Shown: positions 41,524-54,915 of the stretch, piece by piece
How positions within the stretch are numbered: the stretch's first letter is position 1
Layout of the letters: every line of letters begins with the position of its first letter
Assembly (NCBI RefSeq): GCF_053078305.1
Contig: NZ_CP166879.1
Length of the DNA: 64,000 bases
Direction: 5' to 3' (one strand)
Made by a program: the position numbers and the translations under genes
Notes under the pieces: model-generated
Database searches by the model: none
The model's input: the letters and a program-made list of their open reading frames with translations, nothing else
Told to the model about the DNA's origin: nothing

Positions 41524-44925
<3,402 letters not shown>

Positions 44926-44991: not shown

Positions 44992-45591
44992 ATGCGTAAA
45001 CTTTATGCCGCCATTTTGTCCGCAGCCATTTGTCTGGCCGTATCCGGTGCGCCTGCATGGGCGTCTGAACATCAGTCCACGCTGAGCGCGGGGTATCTTC
45101 ATGCCTCGACGAACGTTCCCGGCAGCGATGATCTGAACGGGATTAACGTGAAATACCGTTATGAGTTTACGGACACACTGGGGATGGTGACGTCATTCAG
45201 CTATGCAGGAGACAAGAATCGCCAGCTGACCCATTACAGCGATACCCGCTGGCATGAAGATTCCGTGCGTAACCGCTGGTTCAGCGTGATGGCGGGGCCG
45301 TCTGTGCGCGTGAATGAATGGTTCAGCGCGTATGCGATGGCGGGTGTGGCTTACAGCCGTGTGTCGACTTTCTCCGGGGATTATCTTCGCGTAACTGACA
45401 ACAAGGGGAAAACGCACGATGTACTGACCGGAAGTGATGACGGTCGCCACAGCAACACGTCTCTGGCGTGGGGAGCTGGCGTGCAGTTTAACCCGACCGA
45501 ATCCGTGGCCATTGATATTGCTTATGAAGGCTCCGGCAGTGGCGACTGGCGCACTGACGGTTTCATCGTGGGTGTCGGTTATAAGTTCTGA
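44992..45591 (+). CDS. lom: Outer-membrane protein Lom (Ail/Lom family)
   Basis: Signal peptide plus beta-barrel Ail/Lom-like sequence; position after J as in lambda. Confidence 0.9.
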   Translation: MRKLYAAILSAAICLAVSGAPAWASEHQSTLSAGYLHASTNVPGSDDLNGINVKYRYEFTDTLGMVTSFSYAGDKNRQLTHYSDTRWHEDSVRNRWFSVMAGPSVRVNEWFSAYAMAGVAYSRVSTFSGDYLRVTDNKGKTHDVLTGSDDGRHSNTSLAWGAGVQFNPTESVAIDIAYEGSGSGDWRTDGFIVGVGYKF

Positions 45592-45649: not shown

Positions 45650-48600
45650 GTGAATATGGCAGTAAAGATTTCAGGTGTACTGAAAGACGGCACAGGAAAA
45701 CCGGTACAGAACTGCACAATCCAGCTGAAAGCAAAACGTAACAGCACCACGGTGGTGGTGAACACGCTGGCCTCAGAAAATCCGGATGAAGCCGGGCGTT
45801 ACAGCATGGACGTTGAGTACGGTCAGTACAGCGTTATTCTGTTGGTGGAAGGATTCCCGCCGTCACATGCCGGGACCATCACCGTGTATGAAGATTCTCA
45901 ACCCGGTACGCTGAATGATTTTCTCGGTGCCATGACGGAGGATGATGCCCGTCCGGAGGCACTGCGCCGTTTTGAACTGATGGTGGAAGAGGTGGCGCGT
46001 AACGCGTCCGTAGTGGCACAGAACACGGCAGCCGCGAAGAAGTCAGCCGGCGATGCCAGCACATCTGCCCGTGAGGCGGCAACCCATGCGACTGATGCTG
46101 CAGATTCAGCACGTGCAGCCAGCACGTCAGCCGGACAGGCCGCTTCGTCGGCTCAGTCAGCGTCTTCCAGCGCAGGAACGGCATCAACAAAGGCCACTGA
46201 AGCCTCAAAAAGTGCTGCCGCTGCAGAGTCCTCAAAAAGCGTGGCAGCTACCAGTGCCGGTGCGGCGAAAACGTCAGAAACGAATGCCGCAGCGTCAGAA
46301 CAATCAGCCGCCACTTCTGCATCCACCGCGACCACGAAAGCGTCAGAAGCTGCCACCTCAGCCCGGGATGCGGCGGCCTCAAAAGAGGCAGCGAAATCAT
46401 CAGAAACGAACGCATCCTTGAGCGCCAGTAGCGCAGCTTCCTCGGCAACGGCGGCAGGAAATTCCGCGAAGGCGGCAAAAACGTCCGAGACGAACGCCAG
46501 GTCTTCTGAGACGGCAGCGGGACAGAGCGCCTCAGCTGCGGCAGGCTCAAAAACAGCGGCTGCGTCGTCTGCCAGTGCCGCGTCAACAAGTGCCGGGCAG
46601 GCCTCAGCCAGTGCCACCGCCGCCGGAAAATCGGCAGAAAGCGCCGCATCATCCGCTTCAACAGCCACAACGAAGGCTGGCGAAGCCACTGAGCAGGCCA
46701 CGGCAGCAGCGAGGTCAGCTTCCGCAGCGAAGACATCCGAAACGAACGCGAAAGCGTCGGAAACCCGTGCAGAATCCTCAAAAACGGCAGCGGCATCGTC
46801 CGCCAGTTCGGCGGCGTCATCGGCATCATCGGCGTCTGCTTCAAAAGATGAGGCGACCAGACAGGCGTCAGCAGCGAAGGGCAGCGCCACGACGGCATCC
46901 ACGAAGGCGACAGAGGCTGCTGGTAGTGCGAAGGCAGCAGCTCAGAGCAAAAGTACGGCGGAATCTGCAGCAACGCGCGCTGAGACAGCGGCAAAACGGG
47001 CAGAGGATATTGCATCCGCCGTGGCACTTGAGGATGCGAGCACGACGAAAAAGGGGATAGTACAGCTCAGTAGTGCGACTAACAGCACTTCCGAGTCACT
47101 GGCGGCAACACCAAAAGCCGTTAAGGCCGCGTATGACCTGGCTAACGGGAAATACACCGCACAGGATGCAACGACAGCACAGAAAGGGATAATCCAGCTA
47201 AGCAGCGCGACCAACAGCACGTCTGAAACGCTGGCGGCAACGCCAAAGGCAGTAAAAGCAGCCAATGACAATGCTGAGAAACGTCTGCAGAAAGATCAGA
47301 ACGGTGCGGATATCCCTGGCAAAGACACCTTTACGAAAAATATTGGTGCCTGCCGTGCCTTCGGTGGGTCAGTAAGCACAACAACAGGAAACTGGACGAC
47401 TGCACAGTTTATCGAGTGGCTGGATTCTCAGGGAGCATTTAACCATCCATACTGGATGTGCAAGGGTTCCTGGTCTTATGGCAATAATAAAATCATTACT
47501 GATACTGGCTGCGGTAATATTCATCTCGCCGGAGCTGTCATTGAAGTAATGGGGATAAAGTCAGCGATGACGATCCGCATTACCACTCCGACCACATCCA
47601 GCGGTGGCGGAACAACCAACGCCCAGTTTACCTATATTAATCACGGAACAGATTATTCACCTGGCTGGCGAAGGGACTATAACTCCAGAAATAAGCCAAC
47701 GGCATCAGAGATCGGGGCGCTACCGTCAGGTGGAACAGCAGTATCATCAGTTAATCTGGCTTCAAAAGGTCGGGTAGCCGCGCTGACAGACAATACGCAG
47801 GGGGCAGCAGGTCTTGAGTTATACGAGGTGTATAACAACGGATATCCAACAACGTATGGAAATATCATTCACCTGAAAGGGATGACAGCCGTTGGCGAAG
47901 GTGAGTTACTCATCGGCTGGAGTGGTACAAGCGGTGCTCATGCTCCGGCATTTATTCGTTCACGACGGGATACGACCGACGCAAACTGGTCGCCGTGGGC
48001 GCAGCTTTACACCTCGGCTCATCCTCCTGCAGAGTTTTATCCAGTCGGTGCACCAATCCCGTGGCCATCAGATACCGTTCCGTCTGGTTATGCCCTGATG
48101 CAGGGGCAGACTTTTGACAAATCTGCATACCCGAAACTTGCAGCCGCTTATCCGTCAGGCGTGATCCCTGATATGCGTGGCTGGACGATTAAGGGCAAAC
48201 CTGCCAGTGGTCGGGCCGTATTGTCTCAGGAACAGGACGGCATTAAATCGCACACCCACAGCGCCAGCGCATCCAGTACGGATTTGGGGACGAAAACCAC
48301 ATCGTCGTTTGATTACGGCACTAAATCCACGAATAACATCGGGGCGCATACGCACAGTGTGAGCGGTACAGCCGCAAGTGCCGGAAACCATACTCATAGT
48401 GTCACAGGCGCATCAGCAGTCAGCCAGTGGTCACAAAATGGGTCAGTACATAAGGTAGTGTCTGCGGCCAGTGTGAATACAAGTGCTGCAGGAGCGCACA
48501 CTCATAGTGTCAGCGGCACAGCTGCATCTGCAGGTGCTCACGCACATACTGTCGGTATTGGTGCTCATACGCACTCGGTTGCGATTGGCTCACATGGACA

Positions 48601-48682
48601 CACCATCACCGTTAACGCTGCTGGTAACGCGGAAAACACCGTCAAAAACATCGCATTTAACTATATTGTGAGGCTTGCATAA
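45650..48682 (+). CDS. stf: Side tail fiber protein Stf (long form) with Ala/Ser/Thr-rich repeat region
   Basis: N-terminus (MN)[35 protein letters not shown]... and C-terminal His-rich HTHS/GAHAH repeats match lambda-type Stf as recalled; probable start at 45656. Confidence 0.85.
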
Positions 48683-49266
48683 TGGCATTCAGAATGAGTG
48701 AACAACCACGGACCATAAAAATTTATAATCTGCTGTCCGGAACTAATGAATTTATTGGTGAAGGTGATGCATATATTCCGCCTCATACAGGTCTGCCAGC
48801 AAACAGTACCGATATTGCACCGCCAGATATTCCGGCTGGTTTCGTGGCTGTTTTCAACAGTGATGAGTCATCGTGGCATCTCGTTGAAGATCATCGGGGT
48901 AAAACGGTTTATGACGTGGCTTCCGGCGACGCGTTATTTATTTCTGAACTCGGCTCATTACCGGAAAATGTCACCTGGTTATCCCCGGAAGGGGAGTTTC
49001 AGAAGTGGAACGGCACAGCCTGGGTGAAGGATACGGAAGCAGAAAAACTGTTCCGGATCCGGGAGGCGGAAGAAACAAAAAACAGCCTGATGCAGGTAGC
49101 CAGTGAGCATATAGCGCCGCTTCAGGATGCTGTGGATCTGGAGATCGCAACGGAGAAAGAAACCTTGTTGCTGGAAGCCTGGAAAAAGTATCGGGTGTTG
49201 CTGAACCGTGTTGATACATCAACTGCACCTGATATTGAGTGGCCTACGAACCCTGTCAGGGAGTAA
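48682..49266 (+). CDS. tfa: Tail fiber assembly protein Tfa
   Basis: 194-aa protein [41 protein letters not shown]... matches lambda Tfa as recalled. Confidence 0.9.
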
Positions 49267-49320
49267 TCATTGGGATTATGCCGCAGCACGTCTTAAGCAA
49301 GAACGTGCTGCGGTTGGATG

Positions 49321-49989
49321 CTATTTTTTCCCTGAAGCGGAAAACATTACTACAGTACCTTGAACCTTGGTTTTAACATTCTCGAAATGCTCTGAGAGTA
49401 TATGTGTTAAGCCTTCTTCGGAATCTTTTGTGTTTGAAAAGATGCCTTTCTGATTGTAAATGCGCATCAGTTTTTGACCGAAGCTATTGTGCACAACTCC
49501 ATCGCCAAGAATTGTGGCTCCGTATAGAGTTCCATCGTCAGTTAAGGCCTGCGCCGCATTGCGTATTACACAGCTTTTTGTAGATATATTTCCAGGCAGG
49601 CAGTGAAGAAGGTAAAACATGGAAATGGAATCAAATTGACCATGTAACGCCGCGGGATAAGGTTCAAAAACATCATGGTTAATTTTATGTTTAATTTTTG
49701 ATTCCCCAGCCCTTGTAGATGCCGCGTTCAGGCTAGCTTCGTTCAAATCCATTAAAGATATCAGACTACTCTCAGGTACGTGAGTAAGGTAAAACCCAGT
49801 TCCAACACCAATATCCAGATGGTTGTTACCTAAATGTTCCAGAAAGTGTGGAAGAAGGTGTTCCTTTGTAGGACATCCCCATGCAAGCCGATTTGATACT
49901 CCCAAAACCCACCAGTCATAAAGCTTTAGGGTAAGTGGTGTGTAAATTTTAGCCCCATCATCTGTGTTTTTTTTCATTAATTTCACCAT
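49321..49989 (-). CDS. Class I SAM-dependent methyltransferase (ybcY-like moron)
   Basis: SAM-binding motif I HLDIGVGTGFYL; AT-rich; lies between tfa and a tfa fragment as ybcY does in DLP12. Confidence 0.7.
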   Translation of the reverse strand: MVKLMKKNTDDGAKIYTPLTLKLYDWWVLGVSNRLAWGCPTKEHLLPHFLEHLGNNHLDIGVGTGFYLTHVPESSLISLMDLNEASLNAASTRAGESKIKHKINHDVFEPYPAALHGQFDSISMFYLLHCLPGNISTKSCVIRNAAQALTDDGTLYGATILGDGVVHNSFGQKLMRIYNQKGIFSNTKDSEEGLTHILSEHFENVKTKVQGTVVMFSASGKK

Positions 49990-50045
49990 GTTATAGTTTT
50001 ATTTGTGAATTAAATCAATTATGGCGATGAATTACAAGGGGTTAA

Positions 50046-50351
50046 ATGCTGCCGCAGCATAGCGATATTGAAATAGCATGGTATGCTTCGATACAGCAGG
50101 AGCCGAATGGCTGGAAGACCGTCACCACACAGTTCTACATCCAGGAATTCAGTGAGTATATTGCGCCACTGCAGGATGCTGTAGATCTGGAAATCGCAAC
50201 GGAGGAAGAAAGATCGTTGCTGGAGGCATGGAATAAATATCGGGTATTGTTGAATCGAGTTGATACATCAGTAGCTCTGGGTATGAAGCTGTTTGTAACT
50301 CATGTTACAGTAACAGCCATTACTATCTCGAAGGTGCAAAATGTATATTGA
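50046..50351 (+). pseudogene. Tail fiber assembly gene fragment (tfaX-like, C-terminal homology only)
   Basis: [37 protein letters not shown] repeats the tfa C-terminus (compare 49105-49240); no tfa N-terminal domain. Confidence 0.6.
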
Positions 50352-50534
50352 TTTGATATTTTATAAATTTACTTCGAATCTGGCACGTCAACTTTTGATT
50401 AAAGTAATATCAGTTTTCGGCGAAAAAAGGACCGTGTACATGAGACGATTTCATACAAGAATAACAAAAATATGAATATGCTCCCAATGCAATATATGTT
50501 TTGCATTGGGAACAAATAGCGGAATATTTTGAAA

Positions 50535-52019
50535 TTATTGTATTTCTGCTTCAGAATTTCCTGGGCAGTATATATTTTCTGGTTTTTGTGGAGTGATCAG
50601 GTGATGTACAACTGCTTTATCTACACATAAATTAACTCCGGTGAGAGCTAATGTATGCCCATCACCATTTATTGTTAGTAACGGGCTGGAAAATTTCTCT
50701 GCCATCTTACGGGCATTAATCCAGGGCGTTGTTGGGTCGTATTTGTGTGCTACAAACAGTAAACCAGAGGGCAGAACAGTATTTTTCAGGCGAGTTTTGT
50801 TCAGGTCGCTATGTATTGGCCATAATTCACAAAAATCAGGTGAATCGGAACGTCCATTGTCAAAGTTAATAGCCGGGAAGGCATTCGCAAGAGCGTCTTT
50901 TCGGGATTTTCGCTCTTCTGGTGTTAATTGCTCATCCCCCTGATCTACACAGAGGATTACCCCCGAAGCATCGCTTGACTCTTCTGAGGCTATCGGAGCA
51001 CTGAGCGCAGTTTCAATTTCATTACTGACAATCCCCTGAGAGAACTGGCGTATGGCAGTTGCAAGGGTTGGCCATGATGAACGCCATAGCAGAAGGTCTG
51101 TTGTTAATGATATGAGTTCATCTGAAGATATATTTTCTCCCTTACTGTCTAATAAAGGTTTGTGATGTAATTTTGATAATAGCTCATGGAACTGAGTTAT
51201 TGCCTTATCTCTGTCTGAAGAAAGCGGGCAACTTTTTGTACGCGCACACCAGGATGCAAAGCGATCAAACGTTTCCTGATAACTCTGTGCCTGTTTGAGT
51301 TGCCATGTGAAGTTGTCCTCCAGGTCATCGATATCGACGACTCCATCAAGAACGATAGATCTTACGTTGTAGGGAAAACGTTCTGCATATAAGGCTGCAA
51401 TTTGAGTTCCATACGAATACGCCACGGCTGTCAGTTGTTTATCCCCCAAGGCTTGCCTAATACGATCAATATCGTATACAGCCTCGTTAGAGCCGATATG
51501 GCGAATGACTTCGGCTCCGGTATTATGGATACAGGCATTAATTTTATTTAATACTTGTTGCTTTTCGGTTATGTTTTCCTGAGTCTCTGTATCTGATTGC
51601 CGGCAGTTTATTGTCGGAGTGGACTGTCCGACGCCTCGAGGATCAAATCCAATAATATCCCATGACTCACGAAGATTTGTGACTGGCCAGTCAAAGTTAA
51701 TATAAGGATTTATGCCTGGTAACCCGGGACCACCACTTATTATCAGGATACTTCCTTTATGCTTGCTTTTTGCCGGCAATTTTGTCAACGCTAGTTTGAC
51801 TTGTGATTTTTTTTCATAAGAAGCATCTCCGCCTGTGTCTGTATATTTTAATGGAACAGACAAATAACCACATAGTAAGTCAGGAGACGGTTTTTCCTCA
51901 CCAAACCAGTGGTTGAATTGACTGGCCATACAGGATTGCCACTGTATCTGCTGGGCAGATACGGTTACTGGTAGAAGTAACGTTAAAACAACTTTGAAAT
52001 GAGTAATTATTTTTCGCAT
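50535..52019 (-). CDS. Secreted alpha/beta-hydrolase-fold protein (S33-peptidase-like, tentative)
   Basis: Signal peptide MRKIITHFKVVLTLLLPVTVSA; nucleophile-elbow-like AYSYGTQ; 494 aa; AT-rich cargo. Confidence 0.55.
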   Translation of the reverse strand: MRKIITHFKVVLTLLLPVTVSAQQIQWQSCMASQFNHWFGEEKPSPDLLCGYLSVPLKYTDTGGDASYEKKSQVKLALTKLPAKSKHKGSILIISGGPGLPGINPYINFDWPVTNLRESWDIIGFDPRGVGQSTPTINCRQSDTETQENITEKQQVLNKINACIHNTGAEVIRHIGSNEAVYDIDRIRQALGDKQLTAVAYSYGTQIAALYAERFPYNVRSIVLDGVVDIDDLEDNFTWQLKQAQSYQETFDRFASWCARTKSCPLSSDRDKAITQFHELLSKLHHKPLLDSKGENISSDELISLTTDLLLWRSSWPTLATAIRQFSQGIVSNEIETALSAPIASEESSDASGVILCVDQGDEQLTPEERKSRKDALANAFPAINFDNGRSDSPDFCELWPIHSDLNKTRLKNTVLPSGLLFVAHKYDPTTPWINARKMAEKFSSPLLTINGDGHTLALTGVNLCVDKAVVHHLITPQKPENIYCPGNSEAEIQ

Positions 52020-52205: not shown

Positions 52206-53159
52206 TTAAAAGGTGTACTTAAGACCAGCAGTAGTGATGAAGTTATAGTTTTCTATGCCTGCACCATTTTTGCTGTAGTCTGAAGTGTTATCATTGTGAT
52301 CATAAAGTGAAGTATTACCTTTTTTATTCGTAACCCGATTCCATGCGCCTTCAACATAAACCTTTGCGTTAGGTGTTACGTAATAACCTGCATTGACTGC
52401 AACAGAATAGTAATTTTGGTCTTTGACTTTACTGCGATAAGTGATTCTTTTTCCTGGGTCATAGTGCTCATCGTTATCAGATGCTTCCACCCAGCCGCTG
52501 TATTTAAATGTGCCACCTAGCTCAAAATCTTCATAACGATAACTTCCAGTCAAGCCAATGTAGGGCATTTTAAAACGTTGTTTGTAGCCGATTGCTCTTT
52601 CTCCATTCGGGAAGGAGCCGATATCATCTCTGAATCCCTCCTCAGAACTGTAGATATAGGAACCACCTCTGGCTGTAAAGCTATAACGGCTTTCCTGATA
52701 TCCGGCCATGAGTCCCAGGCGGTAATTGGGTTCGTTGAGGAGCCAGCCTTTGATATTCAGATCAAATTCGTTGGCATAATTGAGTTGTGTATCAGGGTGC
52801 CTACTTTCATCTGTCCAGGTTCCGGGGTTACTGGAATCCATCCAGTCCTGATCGACCATATTGCCACCTCGGCTGCCGAGAGTAGTCCAGCCCGCAGCCC
52901 CAATAGATATCTGGGGCATCAAATCCCAATTAATTGCACCTTTAATAATTGCAGCGTTATTGAATTTCCAGTCGAGTTGACTGACTTTTCGGCCTCCTTC
53001 TTCAGCTAGATAAACGCGCTCTTTTGTTTTTCCGCTCAGAGTTCCAAGACTAATGTCCGCATTTATGTTGTCAGGAGTAAACGATATAGTCTCGGTAGAA
53101 GCAAAAGAGCTGATCGCAATAGGGGTTGTCAGAACTATTCCCAGAAGTTTCGCCCGCAT
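52206..53159 (-). CDS. ompT: Omptin-family outer-membrane protease (OmpT-like)
   Basis: 317-aa protein MRAKLLGIVLTTPIAISSFASTETISFTPDNINADISLG... near-identical to E. coli OmpT as recalled. Confidence 0.9.
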   Translation of the reverse strand: MRAKLLGIVLTTPIAISSFASTETISFTPDNINADISLGTLSGKTKERVYLAEEGGRKVSQLDWKFNNAAIIKGAINWDLMPQISIGAAGWTTLGSRGGNMVDQDWMDSSNPGTWTDESRHPDTQLNYANEFDLNIKGWLLNEPNYRLGLMAGYQESRYSFTARGGSYIYSSEEGFRDDIGSFPNGERAIGYKQRFKMPYIGLTGSYRYEDFELGGTFKYSGWVEASDNDEHYDPGKRITYRSKVKDQNYYSVAVNAGYYVTPNAKVYVEGAWNRVTNKKGNTSLYDHNDNTSDYSKNGAGIENYNFITTAGLKYTF

Positions 53160-53531: not shown

Positions 53532-54725
53532 TTACTCCACCTTCCCATCAAGCCAGTCCGCCCACCATTGCATCATTTCTCTGCGCTTATCGAGATACTG
53601 AGCATGGTTGTAAATTCCACGTACAGATCCGCCGTTGGCATGTGCCAGTTGCACTTCAATGGCGTCGGCAGGCCATTCGTGCTCGTTCATAATCGTGCTG
53701 AATTCATGCCTGAATCCGTGACCGCTTTCCAGACCTTCATAGCCGATTTGTTTGATCACAAGTAGCACCGCGTTCTCGCAGATTGGCTTCTTCTTATCGT
53801 TGCGCCCGGAAAAAACAAACTCTGATACTGGTTTAGTGATTGAGCTTAGTGTAGTGAGAAGTTCAACCACCTGGTCTGACATCGGGACAACATGAATTTT
53901 GCGTCCCTTCATCACATTGGCGTCGATGGTGATAATCCTGTTTTCAAAATCGACGTTCTTCCATAGCATGGAACGAAGCTCTTTTGTTCTGAGGGCTGTG
54001 TAGCGTAAAACTTTGGTCGCAATGAGCGATACGATGCTTCCTGAAAATGTTGCCAGTGCTTTGTTAAATGCCGGGATCTGGTCTGCAGGAAGAAACGGGA
54101 AGTTTTTCTTGCGGTATCCCTTCATGGCGTCAGCAAGGTCAGGTGCCGGGTTATATTTAGCCCTACCAGTGACAATAGCGTAACGGAAAACCTCGCCGCA
54201 TCTTCTGCGGGCTTTGTTGGCTCGCTCCATTGCACCGCGATCTTCAAATCTGCGGATTACTTCCAGCAGTTGCATCGGCTCAATATCCTGAATTTCAAGG
54301 CCGCCGATGATAGGTAAAATGTCGTCATCAAACATTTTTGCAAGTTCAGTTGCATAGCCTACTGACCAGACTTGCTTCTTGTGCTCGTACCATTCCTTGT
54401 AAATCGCACTAAAGGAATTGTTGTTAGACGAAGCCTTTTTCGCTTTTACCGGATCGATGCCAACCGAGATGTCTTTCCTCGCGGTCCATGCTTTATCTCT
54501 TGCCTCCTGCAAAGTCATAAGCGGATATTTTCCTACGGTCAGGATTTTCTCCTTACCGTCAATCTTGTAGCGAAGCTGCCATACCTTTTTCCCTGACACA
54601 GGGACATAAAGGTACAGGCCATTACCATCGAGTAGGCGGTATGGTTTTTCTTTCGGCTTTGCTGCTTCAATCTGCTTAACGGTGAGCATGGGTAAAAATC
54701 CGGTGGGTAAAATTATTTTATCCAC
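53532..54725 (-). CDS. intS: Tyrosine integrase, IntS (CPS-53)-type, adjacent to argW
   Basis: 397-aa ORF; sequence from LTVKQIEAAKPKEKPYRLLDGNGLYLYVPVSGKK... matches K-12 IntS as recalled. Confidence 0.85.
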   Translation of the reverse strand: MDKIILPTGFLPMLTVKQIEAAKPKEKPYRLLDGNGLYLYVPVSGKKVWQLRYKIDGKEKILTVGKYPLMTLQEARDKAWTARKDISVGIDPVKAKKASSNNNSFSAIYKEWYEHKKQVWSVGYATELAKMFDDDILPIIGGLEIQDIEPMQLLEVIRRFEDRGAMERANKARRRCGEVFRYAIVTGRAKYNPAPDLADAMKGYRKKNFPFLPADQIPAFNKALATFSGSIVSLIATKVLRYTALRTKELRSMLWKNVDFENRIITIDANVMKGRKIHVVPMSDQVVELLTTLSSITKPVSEFVFSGRNDKKKPICENAVLLVIKQIGYEGLESGHGFRHEFSTIMNEHEWPADAIEVQLAHANGGSVRGIYNHAQYLDKRREMMQWWADWLDGKVE

Positions 54726-54840: not shown

Positions 54841-54915
54841 AACTGATAAATGGTGTCCCCTGCAGGAATCGAACCTGCAATTAGCCCTTAGGAGGGGCTC
54901 GTTATATCCATTTAA
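54841..54915 (-). tRNA. argW: tRNA-Arg (CCU anticodon), argW
   Basis: Minus-strand sequence GTCCTCTTAGTTAAATGGATATAACGAGCCCCTCCTAAGGGCTAATTGCAGGTTCGATTCCTGCAGGGGACACCA; cloverleaf with CCT anticodon and CCA end. Confidence 0.9.

Follow-up and report, generated by a model that had tools for sequence, protein, structure and literature searches.

A second tail fiber assembly gene fragment behind a YbcY-family methyltransferase cassette: a probable old recombination scar at the cargo end of a lambda-like prophage

The window (the whole stretch of 64,000 nucleotides that was analyzed) carries on its plus strand a full-length side tail fiber gene, stf (45650–48682; 1010 aa), with Pfam matches to phage_tail_N (positions 1–134 of 134), Phage_fiber_2, and Collar. 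The gene order is the same as in the genome record of PhiR26_1, where Stf is annotated. The start of the next gene, tfa (48682–49266, plus strand), overlaps the stf stop at 48682. Its intact 194-aa product, a tail fiber assembly chaperone, matches Caudo_TAP (PF02413) over positions 1–130 of 131 (E = 1.3e-44) and phrog_105 'tail fiber assembly' (E = 3e-100), and is a full-length member of the Tfa family. Tfa proteins combine a conserved C-terminal helical domain with a variable N-terminal fiber-binding domain (PMC9608196). RNA fold energies revealed a strong hairpin at 49280–49314, in the gap where tfa and the methyltransferase gene converge (plus strand, −28.5 kcal/mol and z = −5.1; minus strand, −23.9 kcal/mol and z = −4.9). 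It lies 7 nt past the methyltransferase stop without an adjacent U-tract, and its fold energy suggests that it is presumably a terminator. In PhiR49_2, this hairpin is kept with a tfa 3′ remnant, and dinI comes next in place of the methyltransferase gene; these comparisons indicate that the hairpin is part of the tfa module.

The gene beyond the hairpin (49321–49989, minus strand) encodes, as the preliminary description had proposed for the interval between two tfa copies, a SAM-dependent methyltransferase. The 222-aa ORF is intact, belongs to class I and to the YbcY family, and matches Pfam Methyltransf_12, 23, 25, and 11. The match to the phrog_2132 profile begins at residue 5, the homologues are mostly 218 aa long, and the true start is probably Met5, with its ATG at 49977. 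A divergent spacer with sigma-70-like hexamers (49990–50045) separates this gene from a tfaX-like ORF of 101 aa (50046–50351, plus strand), which an AAGGGG motif, a plausible ribosome-binding site, precedes by 6–11 nt. The AT-rich spacer that follows the tfa-like part of this ORF (50271–50534; G+C 0.32) is specific to the hydrolase-type right flank, the K-12 sequence being unrelated here and including appY, and a terminator scan placed a terminator-like hairpin within it (50479–50514, minus strand). Two cargo genes come next on the minus strand. One encodes a TAP-like alpha/beta hydrolase of 494 aa (50535–52019; Pfam Abhydrolase_1 and Abhydrolase_4; PADLOC PDLC01094, E = 4.5e-57), which occupies the position of appY in K-12 and is annotated in ev243, PhiR26_1, and Turner; the other is ompT (52206–53159; 317 aa), annotated as such in a near-identical genome, in K-12, and in phage records.

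Sequence from the tfa 3′ end had been described as recurring, in diverged form, past the methyltransferase gene, and a repeat search did recover a direct repeat of 132 nt (49090–49221 and 50139–50270; 83% identical, spacing 1049), with one pair only. The coordinates first proposed, 49105–49240 and 50150–50285, captured this repeat, but their right ends were placed about 15–20 nt too far to the right; beyond the repeat, 49222–49247 and 50271–50296 share just 42% identity. Codon-by-codon comparison delimited an in-frame homologous core of 40 codons (49102–49221 and 50151–50270, both on the plus strand), read in a frame common to both ORFs, in which 18 of 120 nt differ (85% nucleotide identity). 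Copy 1 corresponds to tfa codons ~141–180, within the conserved C-terminal region, and copy 2 is a tfa 3′ fragment and a mosaic of two alleles that change at ~50227. The repeat is far above chance, the BLAST E value of this pair in a 99.8%-identical genome being 2e-34. Moreover, copy 2 alone matches Caudo_TAP (E = 8.9e-18, profile positions 75–121 of 131), which, with the 40 in-frame codons, answers in the affirmative the question of whether the second copy derives from tfa.

The two copies are separated by 12.5 synonymous and 5.5 non-synonymous differences (dS 0.68, dN 0.062, dN/dS 0.09), and codon position 3 holds 13 of the 18 differences (p = 0.0009). This mostly synonymous pattern suggests that copy 2 came from another tfa allele and diverged while it was still coding. 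The earlier proposal of a duplication of the resident tfa does not agree with these values, which indicate instead that copy 2 is derived from a different, once-functional allele. No intact tfa allele closer than ~87–92% to the tfaX fragment was found among the sequences compared. At most 12 consecutive nt are identical between the copies, and the product expected from recombination between them (tfa 5′ part, mid-repeat, tfaX right flank) occurred in 0 of 5426 genomes. The copies thus appear too diverged to recombine together, so that the arrangement could remain stable and spread through most E. coli.

The second copy had also been presented as a simply N-terminally truncated tfa, a view that the composition of the ORF does not bear out. 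Residues 1–35 correspond to orfX, a small ORF with no relation to tfa, then Tfa residues ~137–178 follow, and the last 24 residues are unrelated to either. The match to phrog_2341 covers residues 1–87, that to phrog_3893 only residues 3–37, and those to tail-fiber-assembly phrogs only residues 29–77, while a 79-aa Citrobacter orfX aligns with the N-terminus as far as QEL/FS. A phrog_3893-type 5′ end is thus fused to an internal piece of Tfa whose C-terminal end is missing. The ORF is not a full-length Tfa, since its Caudo_TAP match is confined to the stretch given above and the variable N-terminal fiber-binding domain is missing; the last ~15 Tfa codons are absent as well, and PGAP labels it a partial tail fiber assembly protein pseudogene. 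The identity of copy 2 to K-12 tfaX is 98.7% over its first 77 nt and 67% over the next 43 nt, where the amino acids are nevertheless unchanged. The orfX-tfa junction was present in 3434 of the 5426 genomes; the retention of an in-frame fusion in so many genomes would fit some function, but descent from a recent common ancestor is just as good an explanation.

Together with the divergent spacer, a putative promoter region, and the initial ~35 codons of orfX, the methyltransferase ORF makes up a cassette of ~0.83 kb (~49315–50145, minus strand) of the moron type. The segment 49309–50132 recurs at 91.6% identity in Citrobacter freundii contigs with tfa on neither side, the homology to Ayreon stops at the identical point, 50132, and in Enterobacter homologues are found beside other prophage ends. 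The G+C content of the cassette is ~0.40, versus ~0.50 for tfa and 0.52–0.65 for stf. It thus has the boundaries recurring in unrelated contexts and the distinct base composition that are expected of a moron. The cassette is present in 3797 of 5426 complete E. coli genomes, and the flanking cassette diverges by ~1–3% among strains. Ayreon was considered as an 'empty site' predating the methyltransferase gene and was rejected; the last 12 methyltransferase codons, conserved in the family, are still there, which makes it a deletion derivative. Another candidate that was set aside is a Hin/Gin-type crossover site at the methyltransferase 3′ end (49355–49380), paired with 49782–49805, which was no better than dozens of chance inverted repeats, in a window where no invertase is found; about one chance occurrence of its core, AACCNNGGTT, is expected per 64 kb by estimate.

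A consensus scan of the divergent spacer returned TTAACC-16-CATAAT on the minus strand (50045–50018), although such matches occur at chance density. In K-12, the homologous ybcY/tfaX spacer was bound by the RpoD holoenzyme and by H-NS in genomic SELEX (PMC3946193). The scan match and the K-12 binding data suggest that the cassette may have its own promoter, reading the methyltransferase gene in the direction opposite to tfa. As regards function, ybcY and tfaX appear in the literature in promoter-mapping and gene-context mentions only, and a search for a defense role with PADLOC gave nothing significant for either the methyltransferase or tfaX.

The methyltransferase has a Rossmann-like methyltransferase domain with a glycine-rich SAM motif, as in class I enzymes, and its AlphaFold model has a pLDDT of 86.9. 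The structural matches retrieved by Foldseek with this predicted model were all small-molecule or lipid methyltransferases. The top match was PmtA (TM 0.61–0.63, 15–17% identity), other small-molecule methyltransferases scoring equally, and the score against the PmtA NCBIfam equivalog, 16.3 bits, did not reach the cut-off of 390. Compared with PmtA, UbiG, JHAMT, DhpI, and BelI/CysG, the YbcY-type enzyme is only 12–21% identical, and all NCBIfam scores are far under their cut-offs. The preliminary description had asked whether the substrate is DNA or a small molecule; the family and predicted-fold matches favor the latter and point to an enzyme of the small-molecule or lipid type rather than a DNA methyltransferase.

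Many independent junctions with other phages and prophages lie within the tfa 3′ end. The homology of Ayreon to this part of the window starts at 49121, the junction lies at 49147 in ev243 and PhiR49_2, which have a different fiber and two small ORFs, and that of E2348/69 lies at 49150. In the other copy, K-12 and CREC-629 continue towards or through the tfa stop, and the change of allele between the K-12 and window tfaX at ~50227 coincides with the change from appY to the hydrolase as cargo. In addition, the same methyltransferase-tfaX block stands behind different fiber modules in the genomes of ev243, 2G7b, Turner, and PhiR26_1. These comparisons indicate that recombination has repeatedly joined modules at the tfa 3′ end, and that fibers are exchanged beside a stable cargo block and not the reverse. 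The idea of a footprint of tail fiber module exchange among lambdoid phages is supported. However, nothing indicates that such an exchange imported the methyltransferase, as had been supposed, since the cassette is discrete, occurs in Citrobacter without tfa, and in ev243 and Turner forms part of a block shared behind different fibers.

The locus is therefore probably the end of the right arm ('b region') at which a lambda-like prophage carries its cargo, and it would bear an old recombination scar rather than a recent duplication. Tfa would act as the working chaperone for Stf, and the hairpin would close the tail operon. Directly after it stands a self-contained cassette, in which the YbcY-family methyltransferase gene would be read from its own promoter and which ends in an orfX stub. 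Illegitimate recombination at, or close to, a CAGT/AGTGAG microhomology common to both partners (~50145–50151) may have linked this stub, with the frame kept, to 3′ sequence from another tfa allele, giving a chimeric tfaX that is probably non-functional. The DNA for the Tfa C-terminal region is conserved even where tfa genes differ elsewhere, so that this 3′ piece could serve as a homologous 'linker' at which lambdoid phages exchange fiber modules to its left and cargo modules to its right, leaving relic copies behind. We infer the order of these events, which is not readable from the extant sequences.

Other origins of the repeat were weighed against this scenario. A local tandem duplication of the resident tfa 3′ end, produced on insertion of the methyltransferase gene and with copy 2 then decaying neutrally, would agree with two copies that lie only 1049 bp apart in direct orientation and in a common frame. 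Neutral decay, however, predicts a dN/dS near 1 and no codon bias, neither of which was seen, and dS is far above the divergence of the cassette among strains. Two alleles are combined within copy 2 itself, the cassette is found without tfa flanks, and ev243 carries a tfaX copy with no full tfa upstream; this reading, already largely refuted, is very unlikely. We give just as little credence to the idea that the repeat represents two copies of a small-RNA gene, conserved for its RNA function, although Rfam IS009 (RF02111) does match both. Copy 1 aligns with the full model (49025–49223) at 218.5 bits, against a gathering score of 117, but this match lies entirely within the tfa ORF on its coding strand, and the substitutions track codon periodicity. 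In copy 2 (50069–50272), several pairs of the model are broken, the score of 107.3 bits is under the gathering threshold, and the left ~70 nt of the match are orfX sequence with low posterior probability. The IS009 'RNA' coincides with tfa coding sequence, and these hits were taken as coding-sequence matches. It is scarcely credible that an invertible switch with two sets of fibers and chaperones, of the Mu G, P1 C, or e14 P type, left these two copies behind. A Pin-type serine invertase is indeed found between tfa and the methyltransferase gene in Turner and PhiR68_2, but it is oriented away from the canonical layout. In the window, the copies are direct rather than inverted, the interval from stf to int contains no invertase gene, copy 2 has no second stf 3′ end, and the only inverted repeats of the region are at chance level.

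The products of the locus were considered in the same manner. Methyltransferases carried by phages are frequently DNA methyltransferases, and a weak PADLOC match (E = 7e-4, 16.6 bits) to the methyltransferase region of mad2 goes in the same direction. An orphan or restriction-modification enzyme shielding the phage DNA nevertheless seems highly improbable here: no DNA methyltransferase family was matched in Pfam or NCBIfam, the sequence is without a (D/N/S)PP(Y/F/W) or PCQ motif, no such enzyme was among the top structural matches, and the chromosomal homologues in Enterobacter and Salmonella (56–69% identity) stand alone without nuclease partners. TfaX could instead be a functional small protein, either a second chaperone subunit or a decoy against the fiber assembly of other lambdoid phages. 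The in-frame fusion behind its AAGGGG motif, a family of its own in phage genomes (phrog_2341), the frequency of the junction, and the RpoD-binding site within the K-12 spacer all favor such a role. Its conservation, however, is no higher than that of the surrounding non-coding DNA. An in-frame TGA interrupts the Tfa part in K-12, tfaX is wholly deleted in E2348/69, and the window allele lacks the fiber-binding domain and the final Tfa residues and is called a pseudogene by PGAP; a functional TfaX is thus unlikely. More specifically, TfaX made in the lysogen might co-assemble with Tfa from other lambdoid phages, whether incoming or co-resident, and spoil the assembly of their side tail fibers. 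The open frame is the one observation in favor of this proposal, which is most improbable; if true, it would account for an in-frame relic with a ribosome-binding site beside two host-beneficial cargo genes.

Under the preferred reading of an old scar, the arrangement is an already known and ordinary mosaic one, which about two-thirds of E. coli genomes carry, K-12 among them. The K-12 annotation names its genes tfaD, ybcY, and tfaX, and in the thousands of RefSeq genomes in which the arrangement is annotated, PGAP flags the second copy as a partial tail fiber assembly gene. It provides a worked example of how lambdoid phages may re-assort fiber and cargo modules at the conserved tfa 3′ end, with relics remaining. 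Both 'tfaX' and Rfam IS009 would be by-products of tfa coding sequence, and their reading as independent genes calls for further evidence. YbcY, predicted from its sequence and model to be a small-molecule-type enzyme, is worth biochemical attention. Even in E2348/69, where the prophage remnant is reduced to int′-tfa′-ybcY-ompT, the methyltransferase gene is still intact, so that it can reasonably be regarded as a candidate domesticated gene of benefit to the host.

The closest known counterpart is the tfaD-ybcY-tfaX(-appY-ompT) region of DLP12 in K-12, which has the same order and orientation and is 96.6% identical over 1448 bp. The aligned stretch starts around tfa codon ~50, ends midway through tfaX, and takes in the hairpin and the cassette as well as the orfX::tfa junction. 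The likeness to DLP12, here attached to intact stf and tfa genes, had been recognized in the preliminary description and is borne out by this comparison. In K-12, tfaD is fused to terminase remnants, whereas stf and tfa are both full length in the window, and ybcY has lost 2 bp in an A-run at its start, whereas the window methyltransferase gene is intact. The 3′ part of the window tfaX is another allele, without the tfa end and without the in-frame TGA, and the downstream cargo is the alpha/beta hydrolase instead of appY. The window prophage is inserted at tRNA-Arg(CCT) with an IntS-type integrase, and DLP12 at argU. No shared 14-mers marking a second tRNA-Arg 3′ end were found within the 64-kb window, so the other prophage end would lie outside it or the core would be shorter.

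Among phages, PhiR26_1, PhiR29/30, 2G7b, ev243 (Nesevirus), Turner, Kati, and PhiR68_2 all carry the methyltransferase-tfaX(-hydrolase or appY)-ompT block between the tail fiber genes and int. PhiR26_1 is 98% identical across 48682–50640, with the block behind a full-length stf and tfa as in the window. In ev243, an unrelated fiber module is joined to the block, pin and ynaE are inserted between tfa and the hairpin in Turner and PhiR68_2, and the methyltransferase gene is deleted in Ayreon. Phage lambda has the J-lom-stf-tfa order and the lambda-type Tfa (Caudo_TAP, phrog_105) in common with the window, but neither a methyltransferase gene nor a second tfa fragment follows its tfa, which alone was matched (85%). 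The methyltransferase gene is in keeping with the moron concept for lambdoid cargo, being low in G+C, opposite in orientation, provided with a promoter-like spacer, and placed directly after the hairpin that would end the operon.

The right arm of the prophage carries J (41527-44925), lom (44992-45591), a full-length stf (45650-48682) and a full-length tfa (48682-49266; Caudo_TAP profile positions 1-130 of 131), followed by a hairpin (49280-49314; -28.5 kcal/mol, z -5.1), a minus-strand gene for a 222-aa methyltransferase (49321-49989) and a 101-aa tfaX-like ORF (50046-50351). Beyond them, all on the minus strand, lie the genes for a 494-aa alpha/beta hydrolase (50535-52019), OmpT (52206-53159) and an integrase (53532-54725), and tRNA-Arg(CCT) (54851-54925). 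The G+C content is about 0.50 in tfa, drops to about 0.40 in the methyltransferase cassette and reaches 0.32 in the spacer that follows tfaX. ompT and the hydrolase gene thus have the tail-fibre genes on one side and, on the other, an integrase gene of the IntS type directly adjoining the tRNA gene. The J-stf-cargo-int order is that of the ev243 and Turner phage genome records, which means that attP must lie 5' of int; a search of the window for another copy of the tRNA end found none. Further right, the backbone ORFs have what we take to be the sizes and order of K-12 yfdC, mlaA, fadL, and fadI.

The hydrolase, prophage cargo adjoining ompT, looks secreted (Abhydrolase_1 with a TAP-like C-terminus). 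Its entire length is covered by a match (E 4.5e-57) to PDLC01094 ('TAP-like protein'), a candidate-defence model of PADLOC, and it belongs to phrog_20134, a family without assigned function. Internal direct repeats of a kind typical of fibres were also seen in stf (47031-47269 and 48249-48574): a repeat of 107 nt (74% identity, spacing 132) and several His-rich 'HTHS' units of 21-40 nt. RefSeq also has a 45-aa 'hypothetical protein' (WP_001309429.1, 49239-49376) on the opposite strand, running across the tfa stop and the hairpin into the 3' end of the methyltransferase gene; this annotation is in all likelihood spurious.

The largest direct repeat found in a search of 47000-52000 pairs 49090-49221 with 50139-50270 (132 nt, 83% identical, 1049 bp spacing). 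Read codon by codon, the homologous core is bounded by Ser codons: it starts with the one at 49102 (copy 1, in tfa) or 50151 (copy 2, in the tfaX-like ORF) and closes with the one whose last base is 49221 or 50270. Both ORFs read these 40 codons in frame, the copies differ at 18 of 120 nt, and the flanks are unrelated on both sides. The repeat of the preliminary description is thus real, but its coordinates were set about 15-20 nt too far right. A chance origin is excluded by the BLAST match of the pair (E 2e-34) and by the match of copy 2 alone to Pfam Caudo_TAP (E 8.9e-18, only profile positions 75-121 of 131).

Copy 2 had been regarded as tfa-derived, which holds, and as a duplication of the resident tfa, which the divergence does not support. 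The core differences comprise 12.5 synonymous and 5.5 non-synonymous changes (dS 0.68, dN 0.062, dN/dS 0.09), and 13 of the 18 are at third codon positions (binomial p 0.0009). The copies therefore diverged while both encoded Tfa, and copy 2 therefore descended from another tfa allele. Both copies match Rfam RF02111 (IS009), at 49025-49223 with 218 bits, above the gathering score, and at 50069-50272 with 107 bits, below it. The match lies on the tfa coding strand and its variation shows codon periodicity; we take it as a match to coding sequence and not as evidence for a repeated RNA gene. IS009 in effect models the tfa 3' coding region, so that genome scans will call an 'sRNA' at every lambda-type tfa.

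The tfaX-like ORF is chimeric. Over the first ~35 residues it is a member of phrog_3893, an unrelated small-ORF family (orfX) represented in Citrobacter freundii by a 79-aa ORF divergent from the methyltransferase gene; residues 29-77 match tail-fibre-assembly families, and no family match was obtained for the last 24. In the DNA alignment, the two parts meet at about 50139-50151, and a few bases there are common to the orfX-type sequence …CAGGAACTGAGC… and to tfa …CAGGTAGCCAGTGAG…, so that the fusion looks like illegitimate joining at microhomology. We give a low prior to the chimeric TfaX being functional.

The methyltransferase gene is, judging from its boundaries, a discrete cassette: 49309-50132 recurs in Citrobacter contigs (91.6% identity) with no tfa on either side, and homology to phage Ayreon also ends at 50132. 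The left boundary, 49312-49320, lies directly past the stop codon of the methyltransferase gene (49321-49323). It is the tfa module that the hairpin moves with, and not the cassette; in PhiR49_2, a tfa remnant and the hairpin are followed by dinI in place of the methyltransferase. Ayreon (L005, 4226-4229) lacks a clean stretch of ~660 bp, corresponding to 49357-50015, and was considered as an unoccupied site. This was rejected, because it retains, with the promoter/orfX stub, the last 12 methyltransferase codons, which homologues with identities as low as 56% have in common; Ayreon is thus a deletion derivative. Instead of a full tfa, a tfa 3' fragment directly adjoins its stf.

The earlier reading of the region as a footprint of module exchange was right in general terms. 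Homology breaks at 49121 in Ayreon and in the CREC-629 locus, at 49147 in ev243 and PhiR49_2, where a full tfa is absent and two small ORFs come after a different fibre, and at 49150 in E2348/69; further breakpoints are located at ~50145 (orfX::tfa), ~50227 (allele switch), and 50270/50275 (fragment end). The breakpoints are independent, and the tfa 3' end is a recurrent joint. According to published structural work (PMC9608196, citing a phage Mu Tfa study), Tfa-type chaperones are modular: fibre binding is the task of a variable N-terminal domain, and trimerisation is driven by a helical C-terminal domain that is conserved. The repeated segment falls in the conserved C-terminal part, and its conservation across otherwise different tfa genes is why homologous exchange can take place there and why its relics stay recognisable. 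Fibre modules on the left and cargo modules on the right may thus be shuffled at the tfa 3' linker. The two window copies themselves are not substrates for each other: they share no identical run longer than 12 nt, and their predicted recombinant occurs in none of 5426 genomes. That such an exchange brought in the methyltransferase, as proposed earlier, is unsupported, because the same methyltransferase-tfaX block stands behind three different fibre configurations and is thus a stable partner. In Turner (L017, 2854-4510) and PhiR68_2 (L018), a PinQ/PinR-type serine invertase and a ynaE-family gene lie between tfa and the hairpin-methyltransferase block, an arrangement presumably like that of the K-12 Rac prophage; no invertible segment was evident in either.

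Family matches of the methyltransferase are confined to generic class I profiles (Methyltransf_12/23/25/11 and phrog_2132, which has no assigned function), and no NCBIfam methyltransferase score came near any cut-off. Because homologues are mostly 218 aa long and both profile and homologue alignments start at Met5, the start codon is probably the ATG at 49977, which is preceded by GGTGA. Chromosomal homologues in Enterobacter and Salmonella are solitary, without a nuclease partner; others lie at prophage ends, adjoining tail-fibre, DinI or Mig-14 genes. Our own call is that the enzyme would act on a small molecule or lipid. The divergent spacer of K-12 binds RpoD holoenzyme and H-NS (PMC3946193), and the methyltransferase is probably expressed from the corresponding spacer. 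All that is left of the prophage at the DLP12 site of E2348/69 (L021, 2383-5360) is tRNA-Arg, int', tfa', a methyltransferase gene that is intact, and ompT, which suggests that the latter two are kept while phage genes decay; the same remnant context is described for CFT073, UTI89, and 536 (bioRxiv 10.1101/594564).

The likeness to DLP12 had been correctly recognised: the K-12 record lists tfaD, ybcY (a pseudogene), tfaX, appY, and ompT in this order, and is 96.6% identical to the window over 1448 bp (48828-50275). In the window, this block is attached to intact stf and tfa genes, as had been described. K-12 ybcY (L002) owes its inactivation to the loss of 2 bp at an A run just past the probable start codon (window 49970-49980), whereas the window copy is intact; this homopolymer could be a recurrent on/off site. 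Copy 2 is a mosaic, being 98.7% identical to K-12 tfaX over its first 77 nt but only 67% over the next 43 nt, with the same amino acids. Downstream of this switch, K-12 has appY and the window has the hydrolase gene in its position. The fragment ends after VDTSVA in the window, unlike in K-12 and CREC-629 (a second locus type, adjoining potB), where it extends towards or through the tfa stop. A set of 5426 complete E. coli genomes includes 1120 with at least 80% of 48600-50600, 3797 with the methyltransferase cassette, and 3434 with the cassette/tfa-fragment junction, and RefSeq labels the genes 'class I SAM-dependent methyltransferase' and 'tail fiber assembly protein, incomplete, missing N-terminus'. 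The feature is a mosaic scar that is already known and annotated, and very widespread. The same block lies between fibre genes and int in PhiR26_1, PhiR29/30, 2G7b, ev243, Turner, Kati, and PhiR68_2, and PhiR26_1 shares with the window the order stf-tfa-methyltransferase-tfaX-hydrolase-ompT at 98% identity.
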